Assembly: GCA_016928155.1 (NCBI GenBank)
Contig: JAFGLG010000017.1
Span: forward strand, 4,134 to 68,133
Direction: 5' to 3'
From: Candidatus Woesearchaeota archaeon
GTDB lineage: Archaea; Nanobdellota; Nanobdellia; Woesearchaeales; JAFGLG01
Length of the DNA: 64,000 nt
The notes under the pieces are model-generated. The model ran no database searches, was not told the origin of the DNA, and saw only the letters and a list, made by a program, of their open reading frames with translations. Position 1 is the stretch's first letter. Each line of letters starts with the position of its first letter. Of the stretch, positions 2,630 through 51,753 are shown piece by piece. The position numbers and the translations under genes were made by a program.

Positions 2630-3562
2630 ATGAAGGCCATTGTTCTTGCGGGGCAGGATGATTGCAGGCAGAGGGATGTTGAGATATATAATGCGATAAA
2701 CAGGAAGGATTTCCTCTGGAATACTTATAAGCCTCTGATCAATGTGGGTGATGGGGATTCTTATGTCCCTCTCATCGGCAGGGTTTTGGCTGCGCTTGAT
2801 CAGAGCACGAGTGTTGATCATATCATCGTCGCAGGCCTGCCTGGCCTTGAGAACATCATTGATGTTTGTCAATGCCGTACTCCGGTGACATTTGTGCCGG
2901 TCAGGAAAGGGAACAGTCCTGTGCATAATTTTTTTTCTGCTTATGGGCAGGCTGGTGCTTCAGGTCATGCTCTCGTGATGGCATGCGATCTCCCCCTGAT
3001 CCACGAGACTGGAAGGGAAGGCAGGACAGCTGTAGATAGGTTCGTTGACAGATGTATCAGCTATGGTCTGGAACATGATCTATACATGGGTATTGTCTGC
3101 CAGGACCAGGTTGGTCGTCTTGGACTGGACAGGAGATACTTTCGTCTGGTGCCTGATCATGATCCGGGCATCGGGAGGGATCAGGATTATTCCATTGGCA
3201 GGAGATATGGTTTCCGTGATGCGAGCATATTCTTGGCTGACGGATCATTGGATTCTCCATTGTTACGGAAAAATTTTGGGAAAGCAGCTTCTCTGAGGAC
3301 TTACCCCGGACCATGGTTTGCAGCGGCATATTTTTTTATGAGGAATGTGCTTGATATAACAAATCTGATTGTGAAGTATAAATTAGGTAGCCTGGGTGTT
3401 GATGAGCTTGAACACAGAGCTCCGAAGATATTTGGTGCAAGCCTCAAATTCATCGAGATAAGGGGTGGGGATGCAGCTGCATTTGCGCTGGATATAGATA
3501 TCAAAGATGATCTTCAGAAGCTTAGGGAGATTGCAGAATCTGTGCATTTAAAGCATGATTGA
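2630..3562 (+). CDS. hypothetical protein with a MobA-like NTP-transferase-fold N-terminus
   Basis: The N-terminus MKAIVLAG and the motif VMACDLPLI resemble MobA/CofC-type nucleotidyltransferases, but the Gly-rich loop is degenerate. Confidence 0.25.
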   Translation: MKAIVLAGQDDCRQRDVEIYNAINRKDFLWNTYKPLINVGDGDSYVPLIGRVLAALDQSTSVDHIIVAGLPGLENIIDVCQCRTPVTFVPVRKGNSPVHNFFSAYGQAGASGHALVMACDLPLIHETGREGRTAVDRFVDRCISYGLEHDLYMGIVCQDQVGRLGLDRRYFRLVPDHDPGIGRDQDYSIGRRYGFRDASIFLADGSLDSPLLRKNFGKAASLRTYPGPWFAAAYFFMRNVLDITNLIVKYKLGSLGVDELEHRAPKIFGASLKFIEIRGGDAAAFALDIDIKDDLQKLREIAESVHLKHD

Positions 3563-3711
3563 TTTTAGTTAGCAGATTGTCTGATTCTGTCTGATTTTTA
3601 TTATTTTCATACATGATTCATAAAAAAATATATTTTTTCTTATACATTTCCCCCTAACTAGTATACAGAATAGTAACATTTATATATCAGTCGTATTTTA
3701 TAGCTATTAAG

Positions 3712-4107
3712 ATGGTAATATTATTTGACCAATATCACTTGCCGAATGATATTTACGAAATCATTTTTGCGACCGAGCAGCAGGTCATAGTTGCAAAGCT
3801 GCTCATAAATGCCATGAAGGCAAATGACGGAGTGATGGGAAAGACAGAGATGTCGATGTTTGCCACCAAGCTGCATGAGGGCAACCTGCTGGAAGAGCCG
3901 GAAGGCCCCCTGAAATCAAAAGCGAAGAAGATCTCTTACAACAAGAGGCAGTTTTATGACAGGATACTCACTCCGATGAAATCAATGGGCCTTATCGATT
4001 ATGACATGTACAAGAAGGTCTACAAGGTTTCGACAAGATTCAACAAGGTGCTGATCAAGATTGGATTGATGTGGATTCAAGAGGTGAACAGAAAGTCACT
4101 GATATGA
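3712..4107 (+). CDS. hypothetical protein
   Basis: 131-aa ORF with coding-like composition and no recognisable motif. Confidence 0.3.
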   Translation: MVILFDQYHLPNDIYEIIFATEQQVIVAKLLINAMKANDGVMGKTEMSMFATKLHEGNLLEEPEGPLKSKAKKISYNKRQFYDRILTPMKSMGLIDYDMYKKVYKVSTRFNKVLIKIGLMWIQEVNRKSLI

Positions 4108-25499: not shown

Positions 25500-25913
25500 T
25501 TATGGCAAGTCCAGCTTATTTTCAATAGCTGCACTCAATGTCTTGATGTACAATAATGCCTGCACTTGGATGCCTTTCCAGTCTTTTTCATATATGGGAT
25601 TGCCGTAGTAATGGATGCCATTTCTCTTTGTCCTGAATCTTTCGAAGAAGCTCCAGTCAAGGTCAAGTTCTGGATGCTTGACACAGAGATATGCAAAGAG
25701 GCATTGGTGATTGATGGATCTGACTTTTTCAAATAGGAGATAAGTTGCTGCGAGGGTGCGCAATATATCATAGTAAAGCTTTAATCCTGTATTCCAGTTC
25801 TTGCTGAATATTGCCTGTTCAGCAACTTCTGTATCTCCTTTAGTGATTTCTATGTTTGTCATGATCTTGCCGAAGTCAACCTGTTCCAGATAGACTAAGT
25901 ACCTGTCTGACAT
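25500..25913 (-). CDS. HEPN-domain protein, partner of the adjacent nucleotidyltransferase
   Basis: Rx4-6H motif RTKRNGIHYYG. The start is placed at an internal Met so the gene begins 8 nt after the upstream stop. The track ORF extends to 25997. Confidence 0.45.
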   Translation of the reverse strand: MSDRYLVYLEQVDFGKIMTNIEITKGDTEVAEQAIFSKNWNTGLKLYYDILRTLAATYLLFEKVRSINHQCLFAYLCVKHPELDLDWSFFERFRTKRNGIHYYGNPIYEKDWKGIQVQALLYIKTLSAAIENKLDLP

Positions 25914-25920
25914 GCATCTT

Positions 25921-26487
25921 TTATGCACCTCTTCTTTGCTTCTGAAGTTCGACATATGCTGAGACCTCTTGAGGTATTGTACCTTTGACAACAACACCCC
26001 TCAGTACATTGTAGATCACACTACGTCTGAACTTTTTTAATTCTTCCTTGTTTTTTACGGAGAATATCTGGATTTCTCGACGGAGTTTCGATTCATATTG
26101 TTGGAGGTTGATTTCGCCATCTCCATAGATGAAGATATCAATATCACTTCCGAAATACCAATCGCTCCTGGCAAAACTTCCAAACAGGATTGCGCATTCC
26201 ACATCTGCAAGATCATCAAGGATTCCGCAACTGCACAACTGATTCATTGCATATATCCTCTTCCTCAGTTTGTAGTTTCCATCCTCATGATTGCTGACAT
26301 AGTAAGGCATCTTGCCTTTTTCTTTTGTGCGCGTGATGATCTTCTCTTCCTGGAATCTCTTGAGCCATTTTGCTAGTTTGCTTTCTGCAATCCTGATTTC
26401 CTTGTTCAGTTCGCAGAAATGCCAGTGCTTTGCTGGGTTTTCAAAGAATAATCTCAATACATCCTCTTCCTTGCTATGCCTTCCCAT
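25921..26487 (-). CDS. minimal nucleotidyltransferase (MNT) with N-terminal winged helix
   Basis: ILFGSFARSDWYFGSDIDIFIY matches the GSx(n)SDxD nucleotidyltransferase signature. Confidence 0.6.
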   Translation of the reverse strand: MGRHSKEEDVLRLFFENPAKHWHFCELNKEIRIAESKLAKWLKRFQEEKIITRTKEKGKMPYYVSNHEDGNYKLRKRIYAMNQLCSCGILDDLADVECAILFGSFARSDWYFGSDIDIFIYGDGEINLQQYESKLRREIQIFSVKNKEELKKFRRSVIYNVLRGVVVKGTIPQEVSAYVELQKQRRGA

Positions 26488-27035: not shown

Positions 27036-27075
27036 ATCCCAGAATAAGCCAGATATCTTAGTGATCTCTTCATGG
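27036..27075. repeat. left direct repeat flanking the Bro-N cassette
   Basis: atcccagaataagccagatatcttagtgatctcttcatgg. Confidence 0.6.
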
Positions 27076-27181
27076 TGGGGGGTAGGTTGGCAGGTTTTTA
27101 AAGGTTGCTTTATCTTTTTTCCGGAAATCCACTGGTCATTTCGGAGTGAAATATATAAACCATTAAATTATTAGTAAGTTT

Positions 27182-28021
27182 ATGGATAAAGATAATGCTT
27201 TGGTTGTTTTCCAGGACAGGAGAATCCGTAGGATTTGGCATCAGGACCAGTGGTTTTTCTCAGTCATTGATGTCGTTCAGGCTTTGACTGACAGCTCTAA
27301 TCCAAGGAATTACTGGAGTATGCTTAAGAAAAGGGAATCTGAATATGAAATTGACTTGTCCACATTTTGTGTACAACTGAAGCTGCTCTCTGCAGATGGC
27401 AAGTATTATAAGACAGATTGCGCAAATGTAAAAGCGCTTTTTAGGATTATACAATCAATTCCCTCAAAAAAAGCTGAGCCTTTCAAGCTGTGGCTCGCAC
27501 AAGTGGGATATGAACGAATTCAGGAGATAGAGGATCCAGAGCTTGCTCAAGAGCGTATGAAAGAGCTTTATGAGCAGAAAGGTTACTCGAAGGCATGGAT
27601 AGAAAAACGCCTTAGGGGAATTGCTGTTAGGCAGGATCTGACTGATGAATGGAAAAAACGTGGAGTTGATAGCCAAATCGGTTTCTCAATATTGACAGCA
27701 GAGATATCCAAAGCAACTTTTGGCATGACCCCATCTGAATATAGACTATTCAAGAATTTGAAAAATGAGAACCTGAGGGATCACATGACCGACTTGGAAC
27801 TGATCCTCAATATGTTGGGAGAAGCATCGACAGCTGAACTAGAACGGGTTCATGATCCAAATACTTTTTCTGAGCATAAACAGGTTTCTAGAGATGGAGG
27901 AAAAGTTGCAGGAAAGGCAAGGCAAGAATTAGAGAACAAGACTAAGAAACAAGTTATTAGCGAGGAAAATTATCTTGACGAGCCTGAAAAAGTAAAAAGG
28001 AAGAAACTCCCGAAAGAGTAA
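27182..28021 (+). CDS. Bro-N/KilA-N domain protein with RhuM/antirepressor-like C-terminal region
   Basis: N-terminus VVFQDRRIRRIWHQDQWFFSVIDVVQAL is Bro-N-like. The downstream segment LTDEWKKRGV...NLRDHMTDLELILN is conserved. Confidence 0.5.
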   Translation: MDKDNALVVFQDRRIRRIWHQDQWFFSVIDVVQALTDSSNPRNYWSMLKKRESEYEIDLSTFCVQLKLLSADGKYYKTDCANVKALFRIIQSIPSKKAEPFKLWLAQVGYERIQEIEDPELAQERMKELYEQKGYSKAWIEKRLRGIAVRQDLTDEWKKRGVDSQIGFSILTAEISKATFGMTPSEYRLFKNLKNENLRDHMTDLELILNMLGEASTAELERVHDPNTFSEHKQVSRDGGKVAGKARQELENKTKKQVISEENYLDEPEKVKRKKLPKE

Positions 28022-28057
28022 GTTAAAATTTATTATATCCCTATCCCGGCTGCCAAT

Positions 28058-28097
28058 ATCCCAGAATAAGCCAGATATCTTAGCGATTTCTTCATGT
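28058..28097. repeat. right direct repeat flanking the Bro-N cassette
   Basis: atcccagaataagccagatatcttagcgatttcttcatgtt. Matches the left copy at about 36 of 40 positions. Confidence 0.6.
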
Positions 28098-28394: not shown

Positions 28395-28470
28395 AAAATA
28401 CAAGAGGTCCTGGCCAGATTCGCACAGCGAATCTGGATAAACCAGGATATGATCCCTTGAATTTTCCAGC
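28395..28470. repeat. extended-hairpin repeat element, copy 1
   Basis: CCTGG(tttat)CCAGATTCGC-aca-GCGAATCTGG..CCAGG, followed by ATCCCTTGAATTTTC. Confidence 0.55.
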
Positions 28471-36187: not shown

Positions 36188-36260
36188 CAAGTGGCCACGA
36201 CCAGATTCGCAGAGCGAATCTGGATAAATCCTGATTTTATCCCTTGGATTTTCAGATGGG
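36188..36260. repeat. extended-hairpin repeat element, copy 2
   Basis: ccacgaCCAGATTCGC-aga-GCGAATCTGGataaatcctgattttATCCCTTGgATTTTCaga. Confidence 0.55.
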
Positions 36261-39268: not shown

Positions 39269-41473
39269 ATGATAAAGAACTTCGAGCCAAGGCTCTATCA
39301 GCAGACTGTTGTATCAACTTGCGTAGATTACAATACCCTGGTCATCCTACCCACAGGCATGGGCAAGACTAACATCTTCCTGATGCTTGCTGCCCATAGA
39401 TTAAGGAACTACCCTAATTCAAAGATCCTTCTTCTCGGACCGACAAGGCCTCTGATTGACCAGTATCTTGATGTCTTCAGGACCAATTTTGATATTGCAG
39501 AGGATCAGATGGCTATCTTCACTGGTATGATAAGCCCTGAGAAGCGTCAGAAGCTCTGGCAGTCATCAAAGATAATCTTCTCGACTCCCCAGGGCCTGGA
39601 GAATGACCTGATTTCAGGGAAGATCTCTTTGGAGGATGTCTCCTTGATAGGCTTTGATGAGTCCCATCGCGCTGTCGGAGATTATTCTTATGTCTTCATT
39701 GCAAAGAATTATTACAATAAGGCGAAGTATCCGAGGATCCTCGGCCTGACTGCTTCTCCCGGCCATGATCTTGAGAAGATCTCTGAGGTCTGCAGGAATC
39801 TTTTCATCGAGGAGATTGAGATCAGGACTGAGGATGATCCCGATGTCAAGCCTTATATCCAGGATGTCGCCATCTCATGGGTGAAGGTCGAGCTCCCGGA
39901 TGATTTCAGGCTTATCCAGAAGAATCTGAAGCACTGCTTTGATTCAAAGCTCCAGACAATAAAGGATAATGGTTACATAAAGGGATTGAAAAGCACTTTG
40001 ATGGGCAAGAAGGAGCTTCTTTCCATTATGGGCTCTTTGCATAAGGACATCGCGGGCGGCAATAAGGACTTTGATCTCATGCGTGCTGTCTCTCTTCTTG
40101 CTGAGGCAATGAAAGTGCAGCATGCTCTTGAGCTTCTTGAGAGCCAGGGCATCACCCCTCTTTTCCAGTACATGGAGAAGCTGAATAATGATGCGAGGAC
40201 ATCTAATGTCAAGGCAGTGCAGAATCTTGTGAGGGATCTCAATTTCAGGACTGCTTATTATCGTGCGAGGGAGCTTTTTGAAAAAGGTGTGGAGCATCCC
40301 AAGCTTGAGAGGCTCAGGGAGATGGTCAAGAGCGAACTGTCAAAAGGCCAGGATGTGAAGATCATTGTCTTCAACCAGTTCAGGGACAGCGCCTTGAAGA
40401 TTGTCAGTGAGCTCAAGAAGATAGATGGGGTGAATCCTGTGCTTTTTGTCGGCCAGATGAAGAAGAAGGATACAGGGATGAGCCAGAAAGAGCAGCAGGA
40501 GGTTTTGGAGAAGTTCAGGGACAATGGCTTCAATGTCCTTGTCGCGACTTCTGTTGCTGAGGAAGGCCTTGACATCCCTGCTGTTGACACTGTCATTTTT
40601 TACGAGCCAGTCCCCTCTGTCATCAGGACGATCCAGAGGAAGGGCAGGACTGGAAGGCAGGAGAAGGGCAAGGTCTTTGTCCTTATGACAAAAGGCACAA
40701 GGGATGAAGGTTATAGATGGAGCGCTCATCATAAGGAGAACAAGATGTACCGCACTTTGCATGAGCTCAAGACCAGCATGAAGCTCAAGAAGCCCAGGAA
40801 AGAGGCTCCTTTGGATGGATTCTTGTCTGAAACCCCCCTGTATGTTTATGCTGACCTGCGTGAGAAGGGCTCTGGCATCATGAAAGATCTGATTGGCAAG
40901 GGTTTCTCTATCCAGCTCAAGAATCTTGAGGTCGGTGATTATGTCTTGTCTTCAAGATGCGCTGTCGAGATCAAGACTGTGCCTGATTTTGTTGACTCCA
41001 TTATTGATGGCCGTCTTCTGTCCCAGCTCAAGGAGCTTAAGAAGAATTTTGAGAGGCCTCTTGTCCTGCTTGTCGGCCAGGAGGATATCTATTCCCAGAG
41101 GAAGATACACCCTAATGCTATCAGGGGCATGTTTTCTACTATCGCTTTGTCTTATGGCATCCCCATAATGCAGGCAAAGGATTCTCAGGAAGCAGCTTCT
41201 CTGCTTGCTATCATGGCAAAGCGCGAGCAGGAGCAGACATCCAAGGATTTCAATCCTCATGGCTCTAGGAAGCCCATGTCTCAGAAGGAATTGCAGGAAT
41301 ATATTGTATCATCCTTGCCTGGCGTCGGCTCAGGTCTCGCTAAACCTTTGCTTGAGCATTTTGGAAGCGTGAAGAAGGTCATGGATGCATCAGAGGAGAG
41401 ACTGCAGAAAGTCGATAAGATCGGTCCGAATAAGGCTAAGGAGATAAGAAGTATCCTTGATGAGGATTATTGA
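39269..41473 (+). CDS. hef: Hef helicase-nuclease (SF2 DEAH helicase + XPF-type nuclease + HhH2)
   Basis: Walker A PTGMGKT. DESH box. Helicase motif VI QRKGRTGR. Nuclease motif GDYVLS...VEIKT. C-terminal HhH LPGVGSGLAKPLLEHFGS. Confidence 0.85.
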   Translation: MIKNFEPRLYQQTVVSTCVDYNTLVILPTGMGKTNIFLMLAAHRLRNYPNSKILLLGPTRPLIDQYLDVFRTNFDIAEDQMAIFTGMISPEKRQKLWQSSKIIFSTPQGLENDLISGKISLEDVSLIGFDESHRAVGDYSYVFIAKNYYNKAKYPRILGLTASPGHDLEKISEVCRNLFIEEIEIRTEDDPDVKPYIQDVAISWVKVELPDDFRLIQKNLKHCFDSKLQTIKDNGYIKGLKSTLMGKKELLSIMGSLHKDIAGGNKDFDLMRAVSLLAEAMKVQHALELLESQGITPLFQYMEKLNNDARTSNVKAVQNLVRDLNFRTAYYRARELFEKGVEHPKLERLREMVKSELSKGQDVKIIVFNQFRDSALKIVSELKKIDGVNPVLFVGQMKKKDTGMSQKEQQEVLEKFRDNGFNVLVATSVAEEGLDIPAVDTVIFYEPVPSVIRTIQRKGRTGRQEKGKVFVLMTKGTRDEGYRWSAHHKENKMYRTLHELKTSMKLKKPRKEAPLDGFLSETPLYVYADLREKGSGIMKDLIGKGFSIQLKNLEVGDYVLSSRCAVEIKTVPDFVDSIIDGRLLSQLKELKKNFERPLVLLVGQEDIYSQRKIHPNAIRGMFSTIALSYGIPIMQAKDSQEAASLLAIMAKREQEQTSKDFNPHGSRKPMSQKELQEYIVSSLPGVGSGLAKPLLEHFGSVKKVMDASEERLQKVDKIGPNKAKEIRSILDEDY
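41432..41471. repeat. 40-bp direct repeat copy A (the last 13 codons of hef)
   Basis: aaggctaaggagataagaagtatccttgatgaggattatt. Identical to 42654..42693. Confidence 0.9.
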
Positions 41474-41475
41474 GA

Positions 41476-41976
41476 TTACTCTTCCATGATTACCTTGGTC
41501 TTGTCCAGGATTTTTTTTGCTGTATTGAGCAGGTCTGCATATTCTCCGTTTTCCAGTGTTGTTTTTGTGTTGTATTGATACTTTTCCCTCAGGCTGATTG
41601 CTGTTGTTTCATGTGCATTGATGAGTGCCACTTTTTGTATATCCTCCTTATTTAGGTTTATTTTCTTGTCATCGATCAATGACTCGATCAGGGAGAATGT
41701 GCATTCCTGGTTCCTGCTTTCGAATCCCTCTTTTAAGAGTATTGACAAGAAACAATGGTATATTGTGTAGAAAAGGCTGATTGAGCACCAGTCTGTGAAT
41801 CCTCCTTTGTTTAGGTATAATGTGGCTTTCAGGTTGTGTTCTGCCTTGGTCATGTGTTCTTTGGCTCTCGTCAGGCTTGGCTCTGTCCTGACAATGCCCC
41901 TGTGTTTGTGCCCTTTCTCAAGCTCTTTCTGCGCTTTGTTGAGGCACCATCTTAGTTTATTCTTTGCGTGACTCAT
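41476..41976 (-). CDS. HEPN-like all-helical protein, partner of the adjacent nucleotidyltransferase
   Basis: Helical HEPN-like pattern (AEHNLKATLYLNKGGF..FYTIYHCFLSILLKEGFES). No clear Rx4-6H motif. Confidence 0.35.
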   Translation of the reverse strand: MSHAKNKLRWCLNKAQKELEKGHKHRGIVRTEPSLTRAKEHMTKAEHNLKATLYLNKGGFTDWCSISLFYTIYHCFLSILLKEGFESRNQECTFSLIESLIDDKKINLNKEDIQKVALINAHETTAISLREKYQYNTKTTLENGEYADLLNTAKKILDKTKVIMEE

Positions 41977-42547
41977 GGTAAACCCTGATGAATTGGTCCT
42001 CGCCAGTCACAAGGATGCCCTTGATGGCATCTAATATTGGCTTGTGTTCCTTTTTAACATTTTCCTGGATTTCTCCGGAAGTTTGGTACAAAGGATGGAT
42101 TTTTTTCGGGTTTACCTTATTTATCTCATTGACTTCTTTTTGCAGCCTCCTGAATCTCCTCTTGTCAGTTATCAGGAGCGCATCGATATCATTCGGGTCT
42201 GGTTTCCTGAGCACTGATCCGAACAGGATGATGATGTCGGCATTTCTTATTTTTCTGAGCTCTGTTATCCATCTCCTTATCCTCGGAGGTGCGTGCAGCG
42301 CCTCTCTTGACAGCATCAGGGAAACATATCTTTTGGCATATTCTGCATTGCTTATCCTGTAGATTGTCGCCTGCCCTATCTTGCTTGATTTCAGGACACC
42401 CTCTTTTTCCAGTCTTTTCAGTATCTTCAGTGCTCCCATTGGTGTTATATTGGCTTTCTTGGATATGCTGTTCGCATTGTAATGCCTCTCCGGGCTCTTG
42501 GCTATTGTCAGTACAATCTCCATCTCTGCTGCTGTTATGTCTCTCAT
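41957..42547 (-). CDS. minimal nucleotidyltransferase with N-terminal winged helix
   Basis: IIILFGSVLRKPDPNDIDALLI matches the GSx(n)DxD signature. The start is at Met37 of the track ORF, with a TATA-like tttatatatataa about 20 nt upstream on the minus strand. Confidence 0.55.
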   Translation of the reverse strand: MRDITAAEMEIVLTIAKSPERHYNANSISKKANITPMGALKILKRLEKEGVLKSSKIGQATIYRISNAEYAKRYVSLMLSREALHAPPRIRRWITELRKIRNADIIILFGSVLRKPDPNDIDALLITDKRRFRRLQKEVNEINKVNPKKIHPLYQTSGEIQENVKKEHKPILDAIKGILVTGEDQFIRVYHESRKE

Positions 42548-42653
42548 ATAAACATCAAGTTTATATATATAAACTGATAGTTTATAAAGCTTCTGTTTAG
42601 GACAGCTGGGCCATATGGGGATTCCCCAGAAAACCGTGGGTATCAGCCCTAAC

Positions 42654-42693
42654 AAGGCTAAGGAGATAAGAAGTATCCTTGATGAGGATTATT
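42654..42693. repeat. 40-bp direct repeat copy B
   Basis: Identical 40-mer. It still encodes KAKEIRSILDEDY followed by a stop. It abuts the stop codon of the large LysM protein gene. Confidence 0.9.
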
Positions 42694-45448
42694 AGGCTGT
42701 ACCGCCATTTCCTGGCGGGTATGGGTACGAATCAACATACTCAGGTGGTGGCGGGGGGGTTGGAGGCCTCAATTGAAGGAATGAATAAGGATATCCTGTG
42801 AGCACTCTATTCCTATAATATTCTTGATACCAATCCCTCATGTTTTGCATGATCTGGTTAGATTGTTCAGATGAGACACCATATACATAGAAACCTCTTG
42901 ATACAGGAGTTGTTACCCCATATTTTTCCTCTAGCTTGTCATGCACAAATTGGTTTGCATCTGCTGAGCAGAAATCGCAATCTCCGATTGAGAAATGAGT
43001 GTTTAGTCTTTGTTCTGCATTTCTTATTGATTTGTCTCCCACTAGTCCTTTATTGGTTATTGTAGGTTCATCATATGAGAACATTGGCCCCATTGCATCA
43101 TCAAGTCTTTGCTCGAAATCATCGCCGAAATCATATTGTGATTGCCACTGTGACTCCCATAATGATTGATCCCATATTAATTCAGGTGCAAAAGGGTCAG
43201 CTCGCTGCTGTCTCATTTCTGCAAAATATTCATCAATTGAATCAGAAACATCTCTCAGTCTTAGTGGCTCATCTACTATCGTGGTCTCAAATCCTAATTG
43301 AAGATTTTCTGCTAATGCATCAGACCTGAAGAGTGAAGATGGTGATCTGTCTCCAATGGCGCAGAATAGGCTGGATGACCCGCAGTCCTGGAATGGCTCA
43401 AAATCTGCGAGGAACTCCTCTGAGTGATGTGCATCAGTCACAAATGTAGGCTCTGTGTCAAGTAGGTCTAGGTTCCCGATGTCGAATGTTGTGGTATGCC
43501 TTATTTCCTCTCTTTGTCTTTCATTGATGGCTTGCATTTGCGAGGTTGAGATCGTGCTCATCTGAATCCTCCCCCCCGCACCAGCCGAGTACTGTCTAAC
43601 TTCTGTTGCTGTCCCGGGGTTTATAAATATCTGCTCTCCTGCAAAGATAAGGTCTCCTCCTCTATCGCTTCTCTCCTGGATATTAGGATTCATTCTGACA
43701 AGGTCCTGCCATGTCACTGTTTGTCCTGTTTGCATGCTTAGATCTTGTGCAATGTGTGATAATGTGTCCCCTGATTTGACATCGTAAGTCCCGACTGCCA
43801 CATCAAATGATCTTGATGGCCTGTGTGAAACAGCTGGGGCTTCAGGATCAGGTTGAGGTGGTGTGTTTGTTGCCACCTGTTGAGGAGTTTCTACTGGCCC
43901 TAGTTGTATCACGGGCCCGTATGGTTCTGTATAGGCTAAGAACTGTTCACTGGCGCTGTATCCTCCAAAACCCATTAGACCCGCCAGTGTCGGATCTACA
44001 CCTGAACCAATCAACATACTGCCCAGAGGATCATTGAAATCAAATACTTGTTGGCCTTCTGCTATCTGAATTGAATATACCCCATCTCCCATATTGCCTG
44101 TTATGGGCTGTATTGAAATTATGGGCCCATCATTTCTAGGTACAGTATTGAGATAGACTTGAGTACCATCACTTAATCCTGTTGGGGATGATCCGAAAGT
44201 CAATGTTATCGGATCAGATGAATGGCTTTGTGTGAGTATTGTTTGAGGTTGCTGGACTCCTAACTGTTGTATCCTGAGATCTGTTCCTTCTTCTGCCCTT
44301 ACAAGCCCTTGTCCATCAACCCAGGTGTATGATGCCTGTCCGGTTGCATGCACCCCCGCCAGCATTCCGTGTGTTCTAGGGAATGTGAGATCTGCTGCCC
44401 CATTCATATCCGTATATGTTTTCCCAGTGGTTGCATCTAAAATCAGGACAGGTTGCTGCGTTGTCTCCATCCTTATCTCAACACTATTCTCATCGACAAC
44501 TCTCACAGGTCCTAAGAGTCTTGTTGTATCTCCTAGGGTTATGACTTGTATTGACTCTGAATCATCTGCCAGAAGCAAATGGCTGTTGCTTGAAGTCCTG
44601 ATATCTGAGTCATCACCTATTGAATATACTTGAAGATTATAATCATTGTCATTCTCTTTTACATAAGTCGCTCTTGGTGTGATGCCCCTATCATTTGGGA
44701 GTCTTATCTCATGATCATCTATTGTGTATCTTCCTTCAGTGCCAACTGCACCACCATAATATAACTCAACTCCAAGATTACCTTGATCATCTCCTGATCT
44801 GATATAAGTCTGCTGCATTGGTCCGACGATTGTGATTGTCTCAGAACTGTCAGAGGAGCTTACTACAACTGTGTTCCCTGTTGCATCTGTGGTAAATGTT
44901 GTCTCTGTATCAGCTTGAAGGATAAGATCATTGCTCATCTTTACTTGATTATGCTGTGCATCATATCCTTCAACAGTTGATCCGGGTCCGCCCCCTTTCA
45001 CAGTGATGGGATTCTGTTGGTTTTGTGCGTTTCCACCTGTTATTGTAAATCCGCCACCATCACCACTAACAGCCTCAACTGATGATGCCTGTCCTATAGC
45101 AGATAATGGGAGAGGAGTCCCACCAGCTGTGTTTGTCAATGTTGTTCCTGATATTGATATTCCTGGACCGCTCTTTATCTGTGTGCTACCATAGGTTGCA
45201 TCTGAATTAAGGATAACTGTGTAGCTTCCTGTGTTCATATTAGAAAGGTCTACGCTTCCTCTAGTTATTGTTATTGTATTGCCTGATTTTATTGCCTGTA
45301 CCCCTTGAGAACTGATTCCGGTAAAATCTTGAAGTTGGTCATCAGAAAGTGTCTCCTCTTCATCATCTCCTGTCCCTTCTTCTGTTGGCTGAGCAGCAAC
45401 ATTTATGACAATCAAGAGCAATACTAGAAGGACAATGATTTTCTTCAT
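42692..45448 (-). CDS. large secreted protein with LysM domain and Pro-rich C-terminus
   Basis: Signal peptide MKKIIVLLVLLLIVINVAAQ. LysM motif YDVKSGDTLSHIAQDL...WQDLVRMNP. C-terminal PPTPPPPPEY. Start overlaps the upstream gene stop (ATGA). Confidence 0.55.
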   Translation of the reverse strand: MKKIIVLLVLLLIVINVAAQPTEEGTGDDEEETLSDDQLQDFTGISSQGVQAIKSGNTITITRGSVDLSNMNTGSYTVILNSDATYGSTQIKSGPGISISGTTLTNTAGGTPLPLSAIGQASSVEAVSGDGGGFTITGGNAQNQQNPITVKGGGPGSTVEGYDAQHNQVKMSNDLILQADTETTFTTDATGNTVVVSSSDSSETITIVGPMQQTYIRSGDDQGNLGVELYYGGAVGTEGRYTIDDHEIRLPNDRGITPRATYVKENDNDYNLQVYSIGDDSDIRTSSNSHLLLADDSESIQVITLGDTTRLLGPVRVVDENSVEIRMETTQQPVLILDATTGKTYTDMNGAADLTFPRTHGMLAGVHATGQASYTWVDGQGLVRAEEGTDLRIQQLGVQQPQTILTQSHSSDPITLTFGSSPTGLSDGTQVYLNTVPRNDGPIISIQPITGNMGDGVYSIQIAEGQQVFDFNDPLGSMLIGSGVDPTLAGLMGFGGYSASEQFLAYTEPYGPVIQLGPVETPQQVATNTPPQPDPEAPAVSHRPSRSFDVAVGTYDVKSGDTLSHIAQDLSMQTGQTVTWQDLVRMNPNIQERSDRGGDLIFAGEQIFINPGTATEVRQYSAGAGGRIQMSTISTSQMQAINERQREEIRHTTTFDIGNLDLLDTEPTFVTDAHHSEEFLADFEPFQDCGSSSLFCAIGDRSPSSLFRSDALAENLQLGFETTIVDEPLRLRDVSDSIDEYFAEMRQQRADPFAPELIWDQSLWESQWQSQYDFGDDFEQRLDDAMGPMFSYDEPTITNKGLVGDKSIRNAEQRLNTHFSIGDCDFCSADANQFVHDKLEEKYGVTTPVSRGFYVYGVSSEQSNQIMQNMRDWYQEYYRNRVLTGYPYSFLQLRPPTPPPPPEYVDSYPYPPGNGGTA

Positions 45449-46470
45449 GGTTTCACCGTGAATGTGATGACTTTCCAGCCTGTCATGTTCTTTTCATCTG
45501 TGGCGCTGATGTTTGTCTCGAATGAACCTATCTCACTTGGTGTGAAGCTTATTATCCCTGTGTATTTTGCAATAGGCACTTTCGGATTGCTTGATTTGAA
45601 TATCATATAATCATCTTCTGGGTCATATGCCTCGACCTTGTGATAGAATGATTCATTCACTTCAGCTTCTAGGTCAGCAACTTGCACTATTGGGGCATGA
45701 TTCTCAATGTCATATGATGCTGCAAATAGGAAGACATAGGGAACTTCATTTATGCTCACTGTCTCAGGATCTTGGATTATATAGACAACTGAATCTTCAT
45801 AGGAGATTGTATCTATCTGTAGGTTCAGGTCTGATGATACTTCAAGCAGTGTGCTTGTTGGTATTAGTCTGGGATATTTCACTATTGAGTCAGTTATTCT
45901 CTCAGAGGCTTTAAGGATAGTCATCATTCTTGATGGCCTCGAATATTGGAATTCTGTGAAAGTCTTAACTTTTTCACCTTGCTTCACTTCAAAGGGGAAT
46001 TCCACTTTGAATACGACTGTCTCATCGCTGAATTTAACATCAGTTGCATATCTCAAATTGTCGAATTGGTATCCTTGGAACCTATATGTCTTGAAGTCAT
46101 TGAGACAATACTGGAGAGCTTCATCGACATAGTCTTCTAATTCTATCTCTAAGCTGTTCTCTGTGTGCACTGATTTTGCACCTTTGTAATAGAAATATGG
46201 CACTGGTGAATATATTGTTTCCAAATGAAGTGGGGGTATATGGTGGTATCCTCCTTTGAGCCCAAGATGAAAATATCCTATCTCTGCAACATCATCGACG
46301 CATTTCTGCGTGGACATCCTTATCTGCTCGAAGTCGGTTATACTCGCCTGTTCTACTGCCATCTCCATTTCTCCCTTGTTTCTTAGGGATGACATGTAGA
46401 TTATGAGGCTTATGATCATTATGAGCACTATGCCGAGAACTATGAATACTGTGACCTGCCCTCTTTTCAT
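45445..46470 (-). CDS. pilin-like protein with class III (type IV prepilin-like) signal peptide
   Basis: MKRG|QVTVFIVLGIVLIMIISLIIY has a basic N-terminus, a G/Q cleavage-like site and a hydrophobic stretch. 341 aa. Confidence 0.4.
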   Translation of the reverse strand: MKRGQVTVFIVLGIVLIMIISLIIYMSSLRNKGEMEMAVEQASITDFEQIRMSTQKCVDDVAEIGYFHLGLKGGYHHIPPLHLETIYSPVPYFYYKGAKSVHTENSLEIELEDYVDEALQYCLNDFKTYRFQGYQFDNLRYATDVKFSDETVVFKVEFPFEVKQGEKVKTFTEFQYSRPSRMMTILKASERITDSIVKYPRLIPTSTLLEVSSDLNLQIDTISYEDSVVYIIQDPETVSINEVPYVFLFAASYDIENHAPIVQVADLEAEVNESFYHKVEAYDPEDDYMIFKSSNPKVPIAKYTGIISFTPSEIGSFETNISATDEKNMTGWKVITFTVKP

Positions 46471-46543
46471 CAGATATGCTAATCAGAAATGTATTTATAA
46501 ATTTTATGTAATATCATATATTAATAGCCATCATCCTGCCCTG
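46441..46543. repeat. promoter plus 5'-coding block duplicated at 51661..51753
   Basis: About 100 nt are near-identical, including tcatcagatatgctaatcagaaatgtatttataaattttatgtaatatcatatattaatagccatcat and the first 10 codons. Confidence 0.8.
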
Positions 46544-48064: not shown

Positions 48065-50662
48065 TCAGACTAGTGATTGACTTGGATTTCTAATTAGATA
48101 TTGTTGCAACCAGTAGTCTTTCATTTTTGTTTTTATCAATTCCTTCGCTTCATTTTGTTTACTCGGATCAAGCTGCCATATGTTGATTGTTCTCTGCTGG
48201 TTATTGACAGAAGTTAATGCTGTTGTTCCAAGTTCAGTTCCGACCTTCTTGGCCACTGCTTGCCAGCATGCATCATCACACCATGACTCTCCTGACACCG
48301 GAATGTCTGAGTATGTTCTTTTCCACTCAGTCCCTTCTCTATGATACCATCTTGTTGGAGCCCCCTGTCCTCGCTCAAATTCTCCAAACCTCAGATCATC
48401 TCTGTGTTCATATTCATCTGCTTTTTCAGTCAAATCTGAACGTAATACAGCCGGACCTTCAAGAGTTGTAGTATCTGAATTAGATGCTGGTTGCACATCA
48501 GACGCAAAGGGTGGCAAATCACTTAATAAAGGATTTTGCAGATATTGCCGTCCAGAAATAGGGTCGAATAGTGTGGGTTGGTAGAACGGTTTGTTGCTGA
48601 ATAAATTTCTTGCATCAAATCTTACTCCATCATCCACTTGTTCATCCGCTTGTTTAGTAGCCTCATGAATTTTATTTGCAGCTTCATCTGTTGCTCCAGA
48701 TAGATCCTTTGTTGTTATGGTCTTTAGTTTATGGTCTTGTCCTACTACTCCTTGCTTTTGTTTGCCCCAAAAAGATTCTGCAATCTTTATTTCCTCACCG
48801 ATGAATATCAGGTTTTTTCCGCTAAGTGTACTGTCACTTGCAAGCTCTATGCATCTTCCTTCAATATGCGGGTTCATCTCCATCAAATCCTGGACAGTAC
48901 GTCCATAAAGGTCAGCGATCTTCTGCAATGTATCTCCCTTTTTTACCTCAACATACCCCCTTTCAAAGGCATCGTCAGTATCATCACCAGTCTGCTGTGG
49001 AACTACCGCTTCAATATGATCCGAACCCACAAGGGCATTGGATGTTTGTTGTGCCTGAGGTTGAAGGATAAGTGGTACTGTTGTATCTTGGTTGTGGGCT
49101 GTGTCATCCAAAATTTTGACAGATGGTGCATTTTTCTCAGTAACTATTACAACTTTTGGAGTTTCAACCGTGGTTGTAGAATCGCCTTGATTTGTTGGAT
49201 TAGCCACAGGTATTTCTCGTGTAACAGATGAATCTGATATTGGATTCTTTAATTCTGAAACTTTGCCTATATCATTTTGGGTATGTATACACTTACCATA
49301 ATTGATATTATATGTAACACTATAATCAAAAAAAATTTGGGGCCCTTGTATACTAAATTTGGATTGTGGGGTTTGTGTTTCATCATAATTAATAAAAATA
49401 TCAGATTCGATATTTGGAGAATCACCAACTTTTATCCGTAGAGGCCTACGGTTATCATCACCTGCAAGTAAATCACTTCTTGACAAAGTGATCAAGTTAT
49501 AAGGGACACCATTTTCAACATAATTGACCATACTAGTATCACTAACAGAGGGGAATATTATTTGTTCAACTTTATTATCCTGAAATGAGAGCTCATGTTC
49601 GGAATAAACGTTATAATGACCATCTTTATAGGGAAAATTGGATCTTTGACCACTTATACTATTAGGTTTCCCATCATGAAAAGCTAATCTTGCCATTCCA
49701 AGTGTGATAATGCCTGTATCACCATACTCGCACTTAACATTTAAATTTGGATCATCACTTCCTACAGAAATACGATTAATAGCAACATAATCGTCGTGAA
49801 GGTTGATCCTAAAAGGGCCCACAAATTCCTCGCTCTGGGTTGTAGGTAGGGGCCAAGATGTATCTGAAGTTGTATCTTTGGAAATGGCAATATCAAAGTC
49901 TTTATAATGTAAAATACCTGATTTTATAGATGAAACATAATAACTATTTTCTTTTCTACTAAATCTTACAGCTTCCCCGCTATGGACAGTATAAGTCAAA
50001 TCTCCCAATGTAATAACTCTACCTGAGCTTTCCAAATTCTTCAAACTAGAAATAATTACAGATTTAGAGGGGTCTACACTTATGGTGCTGCCGACAAGAT
50101 CGCCTGAAACTTTGACACCATCAATACTTAATTCTTCATTATTATATTCCACTGAAACCTCCTTCACACCAGAATAAGAAAAAAGAACATCTTTATCATT
50201 ATAGGTAATTTTTTCTGATCCACCAGTATTCGAAAATTGGACATTTGAGATAACTAAGATGCTATTTTTATTAGTTATGCGAAACTTATTATTTCCAATA
50301 GCTGAGACTGACTCTGCTTTCACTTTATTCAGATCAAGCGTGTTCTTCCCGTTTGTCACAACCCCATTTTGGACTGTGACTGAGCTCGCTCCATCAAGTT
50401 TCAGGGGCATCCCATTGTATTTTGCATTTGTTTTCAGTACTACTTGATTGTTTCCGAAACTACTGAGTTCTGGTTCCCCGCCAGTCACTGTAAAGACATT
50501 ATCAGCAAATGTTCCGCTTAATCCTTTGCATACATCAGATGAAGCCCTGGTTTCACATTCTGTTTGAAAAACCTGCTCCTCGTCTGTTTCCTCAACAGGT
50601 GGATCTTGAGCAACCACTCCAGCTACCAAGAGCAAAAGGACCAGCAGTATTATCTTCTTCAT
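48065..50662 (-). CDS. large secreted LysM-domain protein, paralog of 42692..45448
   Basis: Signal peptide MKKIILLVLLLLVAGVVAQ. LysM motif YVEVKKGDTLQKIADLYGRTVQDLMEMNP. Confidence 0.55.
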   Translation of the reverse strand: MKKIILLVLLLLVAGVVAQDPPVEETDEEQVFQTECETRASSDVCKGLSGTFADNVFTVTGGEPELSSFGNNQVVLKTNAKYNGMPLKLDGASSVTVQNGVVTNGKNTLDLNKVKAESVSAIGNNKFRITNKNSILVISNVQFSNTGGSEKITYNDKDVLFSYSGVKEVSVEYNNEELSIDGVKVSGDLVGSTISVDPSKSVIISSLKNLESSGRVITLGDLTYTVHSGEAVRFSRKENSYYVSSIKSGILHYKDFDIAISKDTTSDTSWPLPTTQSEEFVGPFRINLHDDYVAINRISVGSDDPNLNVKCEYGDTGIITLGMARLAFHDGKPNSISGQRSNFPYKDGHYNVYSEHELSFQDNKVEQIIFPSVSDTSMVNYVENGVPYNLITLSRSDLLAGDDNRRPLRIKVGDSPNIESDIFINYDETQTPQSKFSIQGPQIFFDYSVTYNINYGKCIHTQNDIGKVSELKNPISDSSVTREIPVANPTNQGDSTTTVETPKVVIVTEKNAPSVKILDDTAHNQDTTVPLILQPQAQQTSNALVGSDHIEAVVPQQTGDDTDDAFERGYVEVKKGDTLQKIADLYGRTVQDLMEMNPHIEGRCIELASDSTLSGKNLIFIGEEIKIAESFWGKQKQGVVGQDHKLKTITTKDLSGATDEAANKIHEATKQADEQVDDGVRFDARNLFSNKPFYQPTLFDPISGRQYLQNPLLSDLPPFASDVQPASNSDTTTLEGPAVLRSDLTEKADEYEHRDDLRFGEFERGQGAPTRWYHREGTEWKRTYSDIPVSGESWCDDACWQAVAKKVGTELGTTALTSVNNQQRTINIWQLDPSKQNEAKELIKTKMKDYWLQQYLIRNPSQSLV

Positions 50663-51684
50663 CTTGTCACCGTGAATTTTATCATTTTCCAGTTTGTTGC
50701 ATTGAGTTCATCAACAACTGACAGGTTCACATCATACACACCTGTGACAGTTGGCGTGAAATTGATGAATCCTGAGTATCTTCCCACTGGCAGTGCTGGA
50801 TTGTCTGAAAAGAACTCGAAAGAGTCATAGTCTGCGTCAAAGCTTTCTATCTCATAGTAGAACGTCTCATTCACCTTTGCTTCCATGTCCTCGATGGGTA
50901 ATGTGGGCGGGTTGTTCATTGGGCTTGTCTTTGTCGAAAACAGGAACATGTAAGGCACCCCTCCGTCACTCAGTAGGCTCTTGTCCTGCACTACATATGT
51001 CACGATTGTCCCGTATGACAGCGTGTCTATCTGGAGGTCATGCTTTGCAGACATTTCTAATATTGTAGAGGTGGGGGTGTATCTTGGATCCTTTATGACC
51101 TCAAGGACTATTTCCTTCGCTGCATCTATTATGTTTAGCATCCTGGCTTGTTGAACATATTCGAATTCCTCATAGCTCTTCACAGCATCCCCTTTCTTTA
51201 TTTCAAGAGGATATCTTATCTTGAATATGATGTTCTTAATCCCGACTTCAACATCGGCTGTGACATTTGGCTCATTGAATGAGTATCCCATCATCTTGTA
51301 GTTCCTGAAGCCCTGCAGGCAATAAGGGAATGCCTCTTCGATTGCCTCTGATAGTTCGCGCTCAAGGTCTGTCTTATTCACCAGTCCGACATATCCCTCA
51401 AAATAGAAATAGGGTATATCTGAATATATTGATTTGAAATGCAGCGGGGGCAGGGTATAATATCCTCCTTTAAGCCCCATAGAGAAGAATTGCGTCTCAG
51501 CAACATCCTCGACGCATTTCTGTGTGAGCATCCTTATCTGCTCGAAGTCTGTCACCCTTGCCTGCTCCACTGTCATCTCAATCTCTCCCTTGTGTCTCAG
51601 GGCTGTCATGTAGATGACCAGGCTCACTATCATCAGGATTACTATGCCGAGAACTATGAATACTGTGACCTGGCCTCTTTTCAT
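50659..51684 (-). CDS. pilin-like protein with class III signal peptide, paralog of 45445..46470
   Basis: MKRG|QVTVFIVLGIVILMIVSLVIY. 341 aa, collinear with its paralog along the whole length. Confidence 0.4.
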   Translation of the reverse strand: MKRGQVTVFIVLGIVILMIVSLVIYMTALRHKGEIEMTVEQARVTDFEQIRMLTQKCVEDVAETQFFSMGLKGGYYTLPPLHFKSIYSDIPYFYFEGYVGLVNKTDLERELSEAIEEAFPYCLQGFRNYKMMGYSFNEPNVTADVEVGIKNIIFKIRYPLEIKKGDAVKSYEEFEYVQQARMLNIIDAAKEIVLEVIKDPRYTPTSTILEMSAKHDLQIDTLSYGTIVTYVVQDKSLLSDGGVPYMFLFSTKTSPMNNPPTLPIEDMEAKVNETFYYEIESFDADYDSFEFFSDNPALPVGRYSGFINFTPTVTGVYDVNLSVVDELNATNWKMIKFTVTR

Positions 51685-51753
51685 CAGATATGCTAATCAG
51701 AAATGTATTTATAAATTTTATGTAATATCATATATTAATAGCCATCATTTTGC
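51661..51753. repeat. second copy of the duplicated promoter/5' block
   Basis: See 46441..46543. Confidence 0.8.

Follow-up and report, generated by a model that had tools for sequence, protein, structure and literature searches.

Insertion with long target duplication was reportedly described for restriction-modification gene units by Nobusato et al. in 2000. [quoted passage not shown] No archaeal case survived the filters of the screen performed by Furuta, Abe and Kobayashi in 2010 (PMC2853133). The locus described here lies in a 64-kb window (the whole stretch of Woesearchaeota DNA that was analysed) and resembles these units in several respects. It likewise appears to be a small selfish addiction-type unit that lacks an integrase, a transposase and terminal repeats; its direct repeats exceed 30 bp, and for the homologous cassette at L175 the target is single-copy in an empty-site relative (L178); and repeat length and sequence vary from event to event, some repeats overlapping the 3′ end of a neighbouring gene. 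With respect to the features used by Furuta et al. (2010), the window shows a repeat longer than 30 bp (40 nt perfect, 67 nt at 84%), an insert smaller than 20 kb and no mobility gene. In contrast to the restriction-modification units, the cargo is of the minimal nucleotidyltransferase (MNT)-HEPN type (in other cases a Bro-N gene or a ParE pair) and is not DNA-cleaving, so that the double-strand-break explanation offered for those units does not carry over. Furthermore, the hosts are DPANN archaea, and a single cassette family recurs at about 13 distinct loci.

In characterised MNT-HEPN systems, neutralisation proceeds by nucleotidylylation. The pair studied here shares with these toxin-antitoxin modules, which combine Pfam Polbeta/NTP_transf_2 with HEPN, the tight co-directional arrangement with the nucleotidyltransferase gene first, the GS...DxD motif, the HEPN domain, and an abundant but patchy occurrence in archaea with frequent decay of the toxin gene. 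It differs from them in the winged helix at the N terminus of the nucleotidyltransferase and in a HEPN protein of the AF0298/UPF0332 type without the Rx4-6H histidine. Insertion sequences of the IS1634/IS1549 type also generate direct repeats that vary in length from tens to hundreds of base pairs, but possess a DDE transposase and terminal inverted repeats, neither of which is found in the window cassette. Finally, a 40-nt repeat would be of ordinary length for an archaeal or bacterial att site, and elements classically integrate into gene 3′ ends, which they regenerate (discussed in PMC2853133). Cis-mobilisable elements, i.e., att-flanked remnants of integrative elements without an integrase, and archaeal elements integrating at tRNA genes or gene 3′ ends resemble the locus in their direct repeats of about 40 nt, a regenerated 3′ end and the lack of an internal integrase; they share a fixed att core and target across hosts, whereas here targets and repeats differ between loci and hef is not reused. 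Overall, insertion with long target duplication is the known phenomenon that comes nearest; new in the present case are the toxin-antitoxin cargo, the archaeal hosts and the family-wide recurrence.

The hef 3′ end and the inserted cassette

The target gene, hef (positions 39269 to 41473, plus strand), encodes a Hef/FANCM-type helicase-nuclease of 734 amino acids, for which the domain search returned Pfam DEAD, Helicase_C, ERCC4 and HHH_2. An NCBI Woesearchaeota protein encoded on a 143.6-kb contig matches it at 100%, and the C termini of the Hef family are consistent with ...LQKVDKIGPNKAKEI... The 40-mer AAGGCTAAGGAGATAAGAAGTATCCTTGATGAGGATTATT is present in exactly two copies in the window (41432 to 41471 and 42654 to 42693, spacing 1222), which agrees with the perfect repeat reported in the earlier note; 100 dinucleotide shuffles yielded none, even when three mismatches were allowed. 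The first copy comprises the last 13 hef codons and the T of the stop codon, and the present hef stop, TGA (41471 to 41473), is thus composed of this T and the first two bases of the insert. To the left of the perfect 40 nt, similarity continues for 27 nt (41405 to 41431 versus 42627 to 42653), of which 16 (59%) are identical (empirical p of about 3-4e-4), so that the first repeat copy with its extension covers positions 41405 to 41471 on the plus strand. The extension stays in frame (QKVDKIGPN versus QKTVGISPN, with synonymous changes at P and N), and the whole repeat then measures 67 nt at 84% identity, with 0 differences in the 40 distal positions and 11 in the 27 inner ones. In frame and coding-like in its divergence, the extension would bring the hef-derived part of the orphan copy to at least 67 nt.

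The orphan fragment of the hef 3′ end (42627 to 42695, plus strand), which includes the second repeat copy, reads ...QKTVGISPNKAKEIRSILDEDY and keeps the old TAG stop. Within it lies the stop codon (42692 to 42694, minus strand) of a gene for a secreted LysM-domain protein of 918 amino acids (42692 to 45448, minus strand; ORF and Pfam LysM match), the original convergent neighbour of hef. In the empty site as reconstructed from the sequence, the two genes have 4 nt in common, and it is exactly at this convergent overlap that the cassette is positioned. The last 40 nt of hef, and probably 67 nt, thus flank the insert on both sides, and therefore both genes retain intact ends. The earlier view of an inserted cassette, with a duplication that restores the hef 3′ end, is supported.

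Between the repeat copies, the insert comprises 1182 nt (1.18 kb) and contains only the MNT and HEPN genes, both on the minus strand. The earlier reading of these two genes, on the strand opposite to hef, as a winged-helix minimal nucleotidyltransferase and its HEPN partner is supported. The HEPN-like protein (41476 to 41976, minus strand; 166 amino acids), the presumed toxin, is of the AF0298/UPF0332 type; it matches PF05168 with 23.9 bits (gathering score 22), 17 of 18 family members likewise match HEPN, and its profile retrieved AF0298 (2hsb) from the PDB with E=1.2e-4. Its gene is convergent with hef, the two stop codons lying 2 nt apart. Conserved residues form the motif R130-E-x-x-Q-Y (R130-E-K-Y-Q-Y in the window protein) together with the upstream pair Y73-H74. 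The canonical Rx4-6H histidine is absent from the motif, and the conserved H74 is found upstream instead. For AF0298/UPF0332-type HEPN proteins without this histidine, an alternative histidine has been proposed (PMC3710099), and following that interpretation the motif is best read as that of an AF0298-type HEPN-T protein.

The second gene (41957 to 42547, minus strand) overlaps the start of the HEPN gene by 20 nt and encodes a winged helix (wHTH) joined to a minimal nucleotidyltransferase of the Pol-beta type, 196 amino acids in total, the presumed antitoxin and autorepressor. Residues G110, S111, D120 and D122 (GS...DxD) are invariant in the family. PF18765 was matched by 30 of 31 family members, the window protein by itself scoring below the gathering threshold (20 bits versus 26.9); fold searches were dominated by the wHTH domain and gave no structural confirmation of the nucleotidyltransferase fold. 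Upstream, an A+T-rich TATA-like box and the palindrome CAGTTTATATATATAAACTTG, centred at 42566/42567, mark a putative promoter/operator (42548 to 42598, minus strand), as suggested by the inverted repeat and by upstream similarity conserved in the family; no other non-coding DNA is shared throughout the cassette family. A spacer of 28 nt (42599 to 42626), which matches neither hef nor other cassettes, separates it from the hef-derived fragment. [quoted passage not shown]

Taken together, promoter/operator, wHTH-MNT and HEPN genes appear to constitute a compact two-gene addiction or defence module of about 1.15 kb. By analogy with the respective families, the wHTH-MNT protein would bind the palindromic operator and neutralise the RNase-type HEPN toxin; loss of the pair would therefore be penalised and the cassette stabilised.

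No integrase or transposase was detected in the insert or among 20 other window ORFs, and the 26 window ORFs scanned gave no integrase match, in line with the earlier note. No tRNA is present in the window, and a tRNA or ncRNA target was rejected. The window contains a second repeat-bracketed cassette (27036 to 28096), delimited by a 39-nt direct repeat (27036 to 27074 and 28058 to 28096, 37 of 39 positions identical); its sole gene (27182 to 28021, plus strand) codes for a protein of 279 amino acids with a Bro-N domain match. Independent support at the read level comes from the Logan assembly of run SRR13394437, which holds a 1242-nt contig identical to positions 41442 to 42683, i.e., the unitig that a k=31 graph should yield from a 40-nt repeat present twice. 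This unitig shows the repeat in the read graph, where integrated and circular forms look alike.

Flanking repeats and empty sites across the cassette family

The cassette family comprises at least 186 proteins with 50 to 66% identity, and is DPANN-wide, with members across Woesearchaeota and Nanoarchaeota. The two-gene architecture is retained at 69 of 93 loci, with overlaps of 4 or 20 nt. Between non-orthologous cassettes, conserved DNA ends 46 to 63 nt before the MNT start codon (ATG) on the upstream side, and in most lineages 0 to 6 nt past the HEPN stop on the downstream side. Nothing is kept beyond promoter and stop codon: no att site or core is conserved across the cassettes, and no terminal inverted repeats were found, the end-to-end inverted similarity of six inserts being no better than in shuffles. 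An integron gene cassette, which would carry an attC site at its 3′ end, is made unlikely by the downstream limit of similarity.

Direct repeats surround the cassettes at about one quarter to one third of the distinct loci. At E<1e-4, flanking repeats were found for 15 of 77 cassette loci, whereas among 158 shifted pseudo-cassettes only 3 had them; in the dereplicated set of 42 loci, 10 exceeded the 99th percentile of cross-locus controls, with three more having repeats further out, and the background amounted to three such pairs in 1.29 Mb of unrelated archaeal loci. About 70% of the cassette loci have no flanking repeat. Across approximately 13 distinct loci, the repeats are locus-specific, unrelated in sequence and 18 to 105 nt in length (those longer than 30 nt in relatives measure 52 to 105 nt), and they derive from 3′ ends, 5′ ends or gene junctions. 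In several loci, the HEPN-side repeat abuts the cassette end within a few bases. At one locus (L107), the repeat is internal to the neighbouring gene and is not explained by simple target duplication; at another (L097), where a ParE pair is bracketed, the repeat has no Rfam match. Cassettes that are 85 to 87% identical in DNA occur in unrelated flanks, and one cassette, P0143, is found in identical form next to either of two left flanks, the break being located 90 nt upstream of the ATG. Recent transposition in the form of near-identical cassettes in fully different contexts was looked for and rejected, as the best examples were only 85 to 87% identical.

An empty site is available for loci L175, L176 and L177, which share the topology of the window: the cassette lies at the 3′ end of a target gene, the repeat measures 84 nt, and only 3 nt separate the HEPN stop from a newly formed TGA. 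The sister lineage L178 to L180, whose target protein is 83% identical, has one copy of this 3′ end, which can be aligned to each of the two L175 repeat copies, and synteny resumes downstream; cassette and duplication thus appear together. Since both L175 copies carry the same four substitutions that separate them from L178, this duplication arose from local sequence. For the window, the nearest Hef homologue is only 64% identical, and therefore insertion at the hef/LysM site is inferred from structure and by analogy. Among the indexed contigs, no other one carries exactly this Hef protein, and in relatives the M50 peptidase synteny upstream of hef is kept while the LysM neighbour is not.

The last 120 nt of each of 78 hef loci of other archaea (GTDB species) were searched for a second copy of themselves. 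None of the 78 was duplicated, only chance-level matches of 14 to 20 nt being obtained, which rules out hef as a recurrent integration target. The same duplicated arrangement in all relatives, which the earlier note had named as counter-evidence, is thus not observed, and its description of the insertion as site-specific is not sustained, given that homologous cassettes are bracketed by unrelated local repeats without a conserved core.

Possible routes of arrival

Insertion with long target duplication is, on balance, how the cassette probably arrived. Staggered breaks, tens of bases apart, would open the target duplex, or a replication fork would switch template; the cassette would then be joined in and single-stranded target stretches filled in, which leaves local sequence as a direct repeat, of a length that differs between events (18 to 105 nt in relatives). 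The target would not be picked by a sequence-specific recombinase, and insertions would survive where the duplication keeps the neighbours intact, i.e., at gene ends in very compact genomes. Because the cassette has neither a recombinase nor terminal repeats nor a conserved att site, the enzymes would have to be supplied in trans. As the inner 27 nt of the orphan copy are diverged, the sequence points to a repeat older than its perfect 40 nt suggests; the earlier dating of the event as recent is made doubtful by the 41% coding-like divergence of the adjoining 27, and is not proved by the identity of the 40 nt. A one-step staggered cut predicts a uniformly identical repeat, and the distribution of differences (0/40 versus 11/27) therefore calls for a second event: the distal 40 nt were probably homogenised later by gene conversion between the copies, or exchanged by recombination.

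This mosaic is also explained by Campbell-type integration of a small circle with a captured hef 3′ end through homologous or generic recombination within the shared 40 nt, a possible though rather doubtful route in which the repeat is carried homology, the proximal 27 nt represent an older or foreign hef allele and the distal 40 nt are refreshed with each crossover. A circle of 1222 nt would fit the Logan unitig, and Furuta et al. put forward the hypothesis that amplification and release via flanking repeats occur in a cycle (PMC2853133). Yet nearly every cassette lineage has different flanks, with cassettes 85 to 87% identical in unrelated surroundings, which would demand a separate capture each time; both L175 copies carry all four lineage-specific substitutions, as in-situ duplication predicts; no circular junction was observed; and homologous recombination on only 40 nt would be inefficient. 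Placement of a non-autonomous (cis-mobilisable) element at an att core in the hef 3′ end by a tyrosine or serine recombinase encoded elsewhere would account for a repeat of att-site size and for the classical 3′-end position, and the extra hef-like 27 nt of the orphan copy resemble an attP arm. The family-wide comparison largely refutes this model, which we consider improbable: hef is not a recurrent target (0/78), the unrelated repeats of 18 to 105 nt share no core, an integrase is found neither in the insert nor in the ORFs tested, and no viral contig carries the cassette, none in IMG/VR encoding a relative of the nucleotidyltransferase. A viral or plasmid origin was rejected on the same result.

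An old, vertically inherited arrangement, in which the hef end was duplicated independently of mobility and the cassette lodged between the copies by chance, could draw on the age apparent in the diverged extension and on the many cassette loci without repeats; it is nevertheless very unlikely in view of the roughly ten-fold enrichment of repeats at cassette boundaries over controls, the HEPN-side repeats that abut cassette ends within a few bases in several loci, and the sister-lineage empty site, where cassette and duplication appear together. That a separate circular or repeated element of 1.2 kb was mis-threaded into the hef/LysM junction via the shared 40-mer is scarcely credible. The genome is metagenome-assembled and the k=31 graph is ambiguous, but normal reads, like the final k-mers of standard assemblers, are longer than a 40-nt repeat, mis-joining cannot create a diverged hef-like extension or a new in-frame hef stop with insert bases, and independent assemblies from several samples show this architecture too, there with imperfect repeats.

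Besides insertion by enzymes acting in trans, it is conceivable, if decidedly unlikely, that the cassette is self-mobilising, the winged-helix/Pol-beta-type nucleotidyltransferase, possibly with HEPN, binding the operator at the cassette edge and joining in excision or insertion, e.g., by priming or filling staggered gaps. If true, the pair would be a new kind of minimal transposable element, generating long target duplications without a transposase or integrase.

Implications for small modules in compact genomes

How toxin-antitoxin and small defence modules move without a recognisable mobility gene is an old open question, and insertion with long target duplication had, since 2000, been known only from a handful of bacterial restriction-modification units. 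Here, its signature recurs within one compact cassette family in uncultivated DPANN archaea, with sharp ends (promoter to stop codon), differing insertion ages and at least one matched empty site, and other cargos of these genomes show the same behaviour. The data set makes the mechanism testable through junction anatomy, duplication lengths, the host genes that co-occur with the cassettes and circles at the read level. In addition, it illustrates how a genome whose genes overlap can take up new ones while the adjacent genes stay intact.

The repeat-bracketed cassette at the hef/LysM junction

A compact cassette of a minimal nucleotidyltransferase (MNT) gene and a HEPN gene sits at the junction of hef and the LysM protein gene, bracketed by a 40-nt direct repeat, AAGGCTAAGGAGATAAGAAGTATCCTTGATGAGGATTATT, which, in agreement with the earlier note, occurs in exactly two copies in the window (41432-41471 and 42654-42693); the chance expectation for such a repeat in the window is none, even with three mismatches. 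Copy 1 is the 3′ end of hef (39269-41473), which encodes a 734-aa Hef-type helicase-nuclease with DEAD, Helicase_C, ERCC4, and HhH2 domains, identical to an annotated Candidatus Woesearchaeota MAG protein at NCBI. Copy 2 belongs to an orphan hef fragment, to the right of which lies the minus-strand gene of the 918-aa LysM protein, with its stop codon (42692-42694) inside copy 2. Leftward of the 40 nt, similarity continues for 27 nt (16/27 identity, empirical p about 3-4e-4), in frame, with QKVDKIGPN in hef facing QKTVGISPN in the orphan copy; among the differences are synonymous changes in the Pro and Asn codons. At least 40 nt of hef, and probably 67 nt, are thus found on both sides of the cassette. 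The present hef stop, TGA, consists of the last T of the repeat and two insert bases, and the orphan copy retains the old TAG. When the empty site is reconstructed, the ends of hef and the LysM gene share 4 nt, so that any insertion there must duplicate sequence for both genes to stay intact. The LysM gene is itself part of a tandem-duplicated two-gene module, composed of a large secreted LysM protein (918 and 865 aa; 42692-45448 and 48065-50662) followed by a 341-aa protein without Pfam match (45445-46470 and 50659-51684); in their 5′ parts, the genes of the two 341-aa proteins are 88% identical over 254 nt (46281-46534 and 51495-51748).

Both cassette genes are on the minus strand. The first (41957-42547) encodes a 196-aa protein whose N-terminal winged helix is followed by a Pol-beta-type nucleotidyltransferase core, and the second (41476-41976), which overlaps it, a 166-aa HEPN-domain protein. 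The nucleotidyltransferase family comprises at least 186 proteins of 193 to 197 aa with 50 to 66% identity, all from Woesearchaeota/Nanoarchaeota-type DPANN, with invariant G110-S111 and D120-x-D122; Pfam Polbeta is matched by 30 of 31 members, and the candidate defence component PDC-M05A of PADLOC matches the nucleotidyltransferase at E=9e-11. In a fold search with this protein, the matches listed were filled by winged-helix entries, and the nucleotidyltransferase assignment is sequence-based. Pfam HEPN is matched by 17 of 18 members of the partner family, whose profile finds Archaeoglobus AF0298 (PDB 2hsb; E=1.2e-4) and whose invariant positions are H25-R26-G27, Y73, E86/N89-Q90-E91-C92-T93, and R130-E131..Q134-Y135, H74 being nearly invariant. 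The canonical Rx4-6H histidine is absent from the partner family, as it is from AF0298-type HEPN-T proteins, for which a conserved upstream histidine has been proposed as a substitute (Anantharaman et al.; PMC3710099). Upstream of the nucleotidyltransferase ATG, a palindrome (centre 42566/42567) and an A+T-rich box are present, and this upstream region is kept across the family. By family membership, the two genes would form an autoregulated MNT-HEPN pair of the toxin-antitoxin type. In several of the archaeal loci fetched (L092-L094, L107, L113, L120/L123, L160, and L165), the HEPN gene is truncated or frameshifted (41 to 143 codons) beside an intact nucleotidyltransferase gene, as is usual when a toxin gene decays. 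In L092, where 41 to 45 HEPN codons are left, a reverse-transcriptase gene (RVT_1, 366 aa; 2704-3804, minus strand) lies 1.2 kb upstream of the cassette, probably by coincidence.

Flanking repeats across the cassette family

The 93 fetched loci that encode nucleotidyltransferase family members show the two-gene architecture in 69 cases, the HEPN gene being cut off or decayed in the remainder. For the detection of repeats, the 800 nt upstream of the nucleotidyltransferase gene were compared with the 800 nt downstream of the HEPN gene, and pseudo-cassettes shifted by 2.5 to 3.5 kb served as controls. Direct repeats at E<1e-4 were found in 15 of 77 testable cassette loci versus 3 of 158 pseudo-cassettes; after dereplication, 10 of 42 distinct loci exceeded the 99th percentile of cross-locus controls, and three additional loci had flanking repeats slightly further out. 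Specifically, the repeats measure 84 nt in L096 (98.8% identity), 89 nt in L124 (98.9%), at least 94 nt in L138 (98%), 105 nt in L107 (97%), 52 nt in L134 (96%), at least 56 nt in L143 (91%), 85 nt in L140 (89%), 98 nt in L104 (87%), 94 nt in L164 (86%), 93 nt in L118 (84%), 96 nt in L144 (80%), and 18 nt in L165/L167 (100%). Repeats of different loci are mutually unrelated, each being a piece of local genes: the 3′ ends of convergent genes in L096 and L104, 5′ ends with promoter in L124 and L164, a pilin-like N-terminus in L138, and a gene junction in L143. Long direct repeats of locus-specific sequence are a recurrent feature at the borders of the family's cassettes. The background, taken from 1.29 Mb of unrelated archaeal (hef) loci, was just three comparable pairs: perfect repeats of 164 nt (L003, 1242-1405 and 2379-2542) and 39 nt (L027, 940-978 and 2011-2049), which enclose ORFs of 288 and 323 aa, respectively, and a 31-nt repeat located 0.3 kb downstream of hef (L076, 12514-12544 and 13797-13827); the three segments may have arisen by the same mode of insertion.

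Similarity at the DNA level among non-orthologous cassettes starts 46 to 63 nt upstream of the ATG and, in most lineages, stops 0 to 6 nt past the HEPN stop codon, and six inserts showed no terminal inverted repeats beyond shuffled expectation; the mobile unit therefore consists of the promoter and two genes only. The left flank of the cassette encoding nucleotidyltransferase P0143 (L082-L091 and L105; 99.5 to 100% identical) differs between samples, being an RLI/ABCE1 gene in some and a TrmB-like gene in others, with the break exactly 90 nt upstream of the ATG; the right flank, a tRNA methyltransferase-like gene, is constant, and no flanking repeat was found at these loci. The 93-nt repeat of L118 (248-340) recurs at 85 to 94% identity on both cassette sides in L121 (4417-4525 and 7283-7337) and upstream of the cassette in L135 (812-854); the outer flanks of the three loci do not align, and in this sub-lineage the repeat may be mobile together with the cassette or represent a small repetitive element.

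An empty site and other bracketed cargos

One cassette could be matched with an empty site, in which the repeat is single-copy. Its locus, L096, is the same as L175, L176, and L177 from three samples and mirrors the window: a 1229-aa gene is convergent on the HEPN gene, and a second copy of its final 84 nt lies upstream of the cassette promoter. The last repeated base is the T of the stop codon; the old TAA is still found in the orphan copy, and the intact gene stops at a new TGA completed by bases of the insert. The closest relative of the 1229-aa target protein (83% identity; L178, L179, and L180) is without cassette. L175 4060-5565 aligns to L178 3335-4840 and L175 6710-6792 to L178 4759-4841, so that both repeat copies have their match in the single L178 gene end; the two loci are syntenic again from L175 8085, corresponding to L178 4862. 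All four substitutions relative to L178 are common to both copies, which shows that local sequence was the source of the duplication. A further 1.3 kb directly after the orphan copy (L175 6793-8084) is absent from L178 at the same spot; it has no obvious repeat and consists of small toxin-antitoxin-like genes, namely, those of a second nucleotidyltransferase (165 aa) and a MazE-like protein (59 aa), along with ORFs of 53 and 45 aa. The junction therefore behaves as an insertion hotspot for small cassettes.

Other cargos are bracketed as well. In the window, a 39-nt repeat (27036-27074 and 28058-28096; 37/39 identical) encloses a single gene, which encodes a 279-aa Bro-N-domain protein (27182-28021, plus strand), and in L097 (likewise in L098) a 78-nt direct repeat (7022-7099 and 8882-8959; 91%) without Rfam match encloses 1.8 kb of DNA that holds a 278-aa ORF besides a ParE-toxin pair (88 and 111 aa), at a distance of 1.3 kb from an MNT-HEPN cassette. 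The process therefore seems independent of the MNT-HEPN genes themselves. The 39-nt repeat spans the start codon and roughly the first dozen codons of a short ORF on the minus strand. At 0.5 kb from the Bro-N cassette lies another gene pair (25500-26487, minus strand), which encodes a different winged-helix nucleotidyltransferase (188 aa; Polbeta and NTP_transf_2 above gathering score) and a 165-aa partner without Pfam match, giving this stretch the appearance of a small islet of toxin-antitoxin or defence genes. The hairpin CCAGATTCGC-ACA-GCGAATCTGG is contained in a 53-nt direct repeat (87%; 28414-28466 and 36201-36253, 7.8 kb apart). No tRNA was found in the window.

Origin of the duplications

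An assembly artefact at the hef/LysM junction is extremely improbable. A 1242-nt contig of the Logan assembly of SRR13394437 equals window 41442-42683 and corresponds to the unitig that two 40-nt repeat copies should delimit at k=31; it shows that the repeat is present in the reads, and fits the integrated or a circular form. Moreover, mis-joining is unable to create the diverged hef-like extension of the orphan copy or the new in-frame stop, and an architecture like that of the window, with imperfect repeats, is seen again in independent assemblies. The window very probably holds an inserted cassette with a long target duplication, belonging to a mobile cassette family. By a narrow preference, we propose that the duplication is made at insertion, which is not site-specific: the repeats would be target duplications arising when staggered breaks are filled in or when a replication fork switches template, the insertion enzymes would be supplied in trans, and selection would keep gene-end insertions, where duplication preserves the neighbours. 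The alternative, a circle carrying the hef 3′ end that integrates by Campbell-type recombination within the shared 40 nt, the cassette cycling through this segment, appears unlikely. It bears on the mosaic of the window repeat, with 0/40 differences followed by 11/27, which a single recent event does not explain: recombination cycling is one of two remaining explanations, the other being an old event with the distal 40 nt homogenised by gene conversion. The recent insertion that the earlier note read from the perfect repeat is doubtful in view of the adjoining 27 nt.

The view that the insertion regenerated the gene end, with no integrase present, was borne out. Scans of the insert and of 26 window ORFs revealed neither an integrase nor a transposase; the surroundings are housekeeping genes (Topo VI A, RFC, primase-like, ThiF, and Nre), and no viral contigs carrying the cassette family were found. 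That it was site-specific gained no support, given that none of 78 hef loci from GTDB species representatives has a second copy of its own hef 3′ end and that the cassette repeats are locus-specific. The window cassette matches the "insertion with long target duplication" named by Kobayashi's group for restriction-modification units without mobility genes, with repeats of about 45 to 420 bp and unknown mechanism (PMC2853133, PMC3874152); the group's 2010 screen retained no archaeal case (PMC2853133). A limited literature search found no report of such insertion for toxin-antitoxin cassettes or DPANN archaea. Its interest exceeds that of an isolated case, since the window cassette exemplifies a mechanistically unexplained, family-wide mode of inserting genes into the genomes of DPANN archaea.
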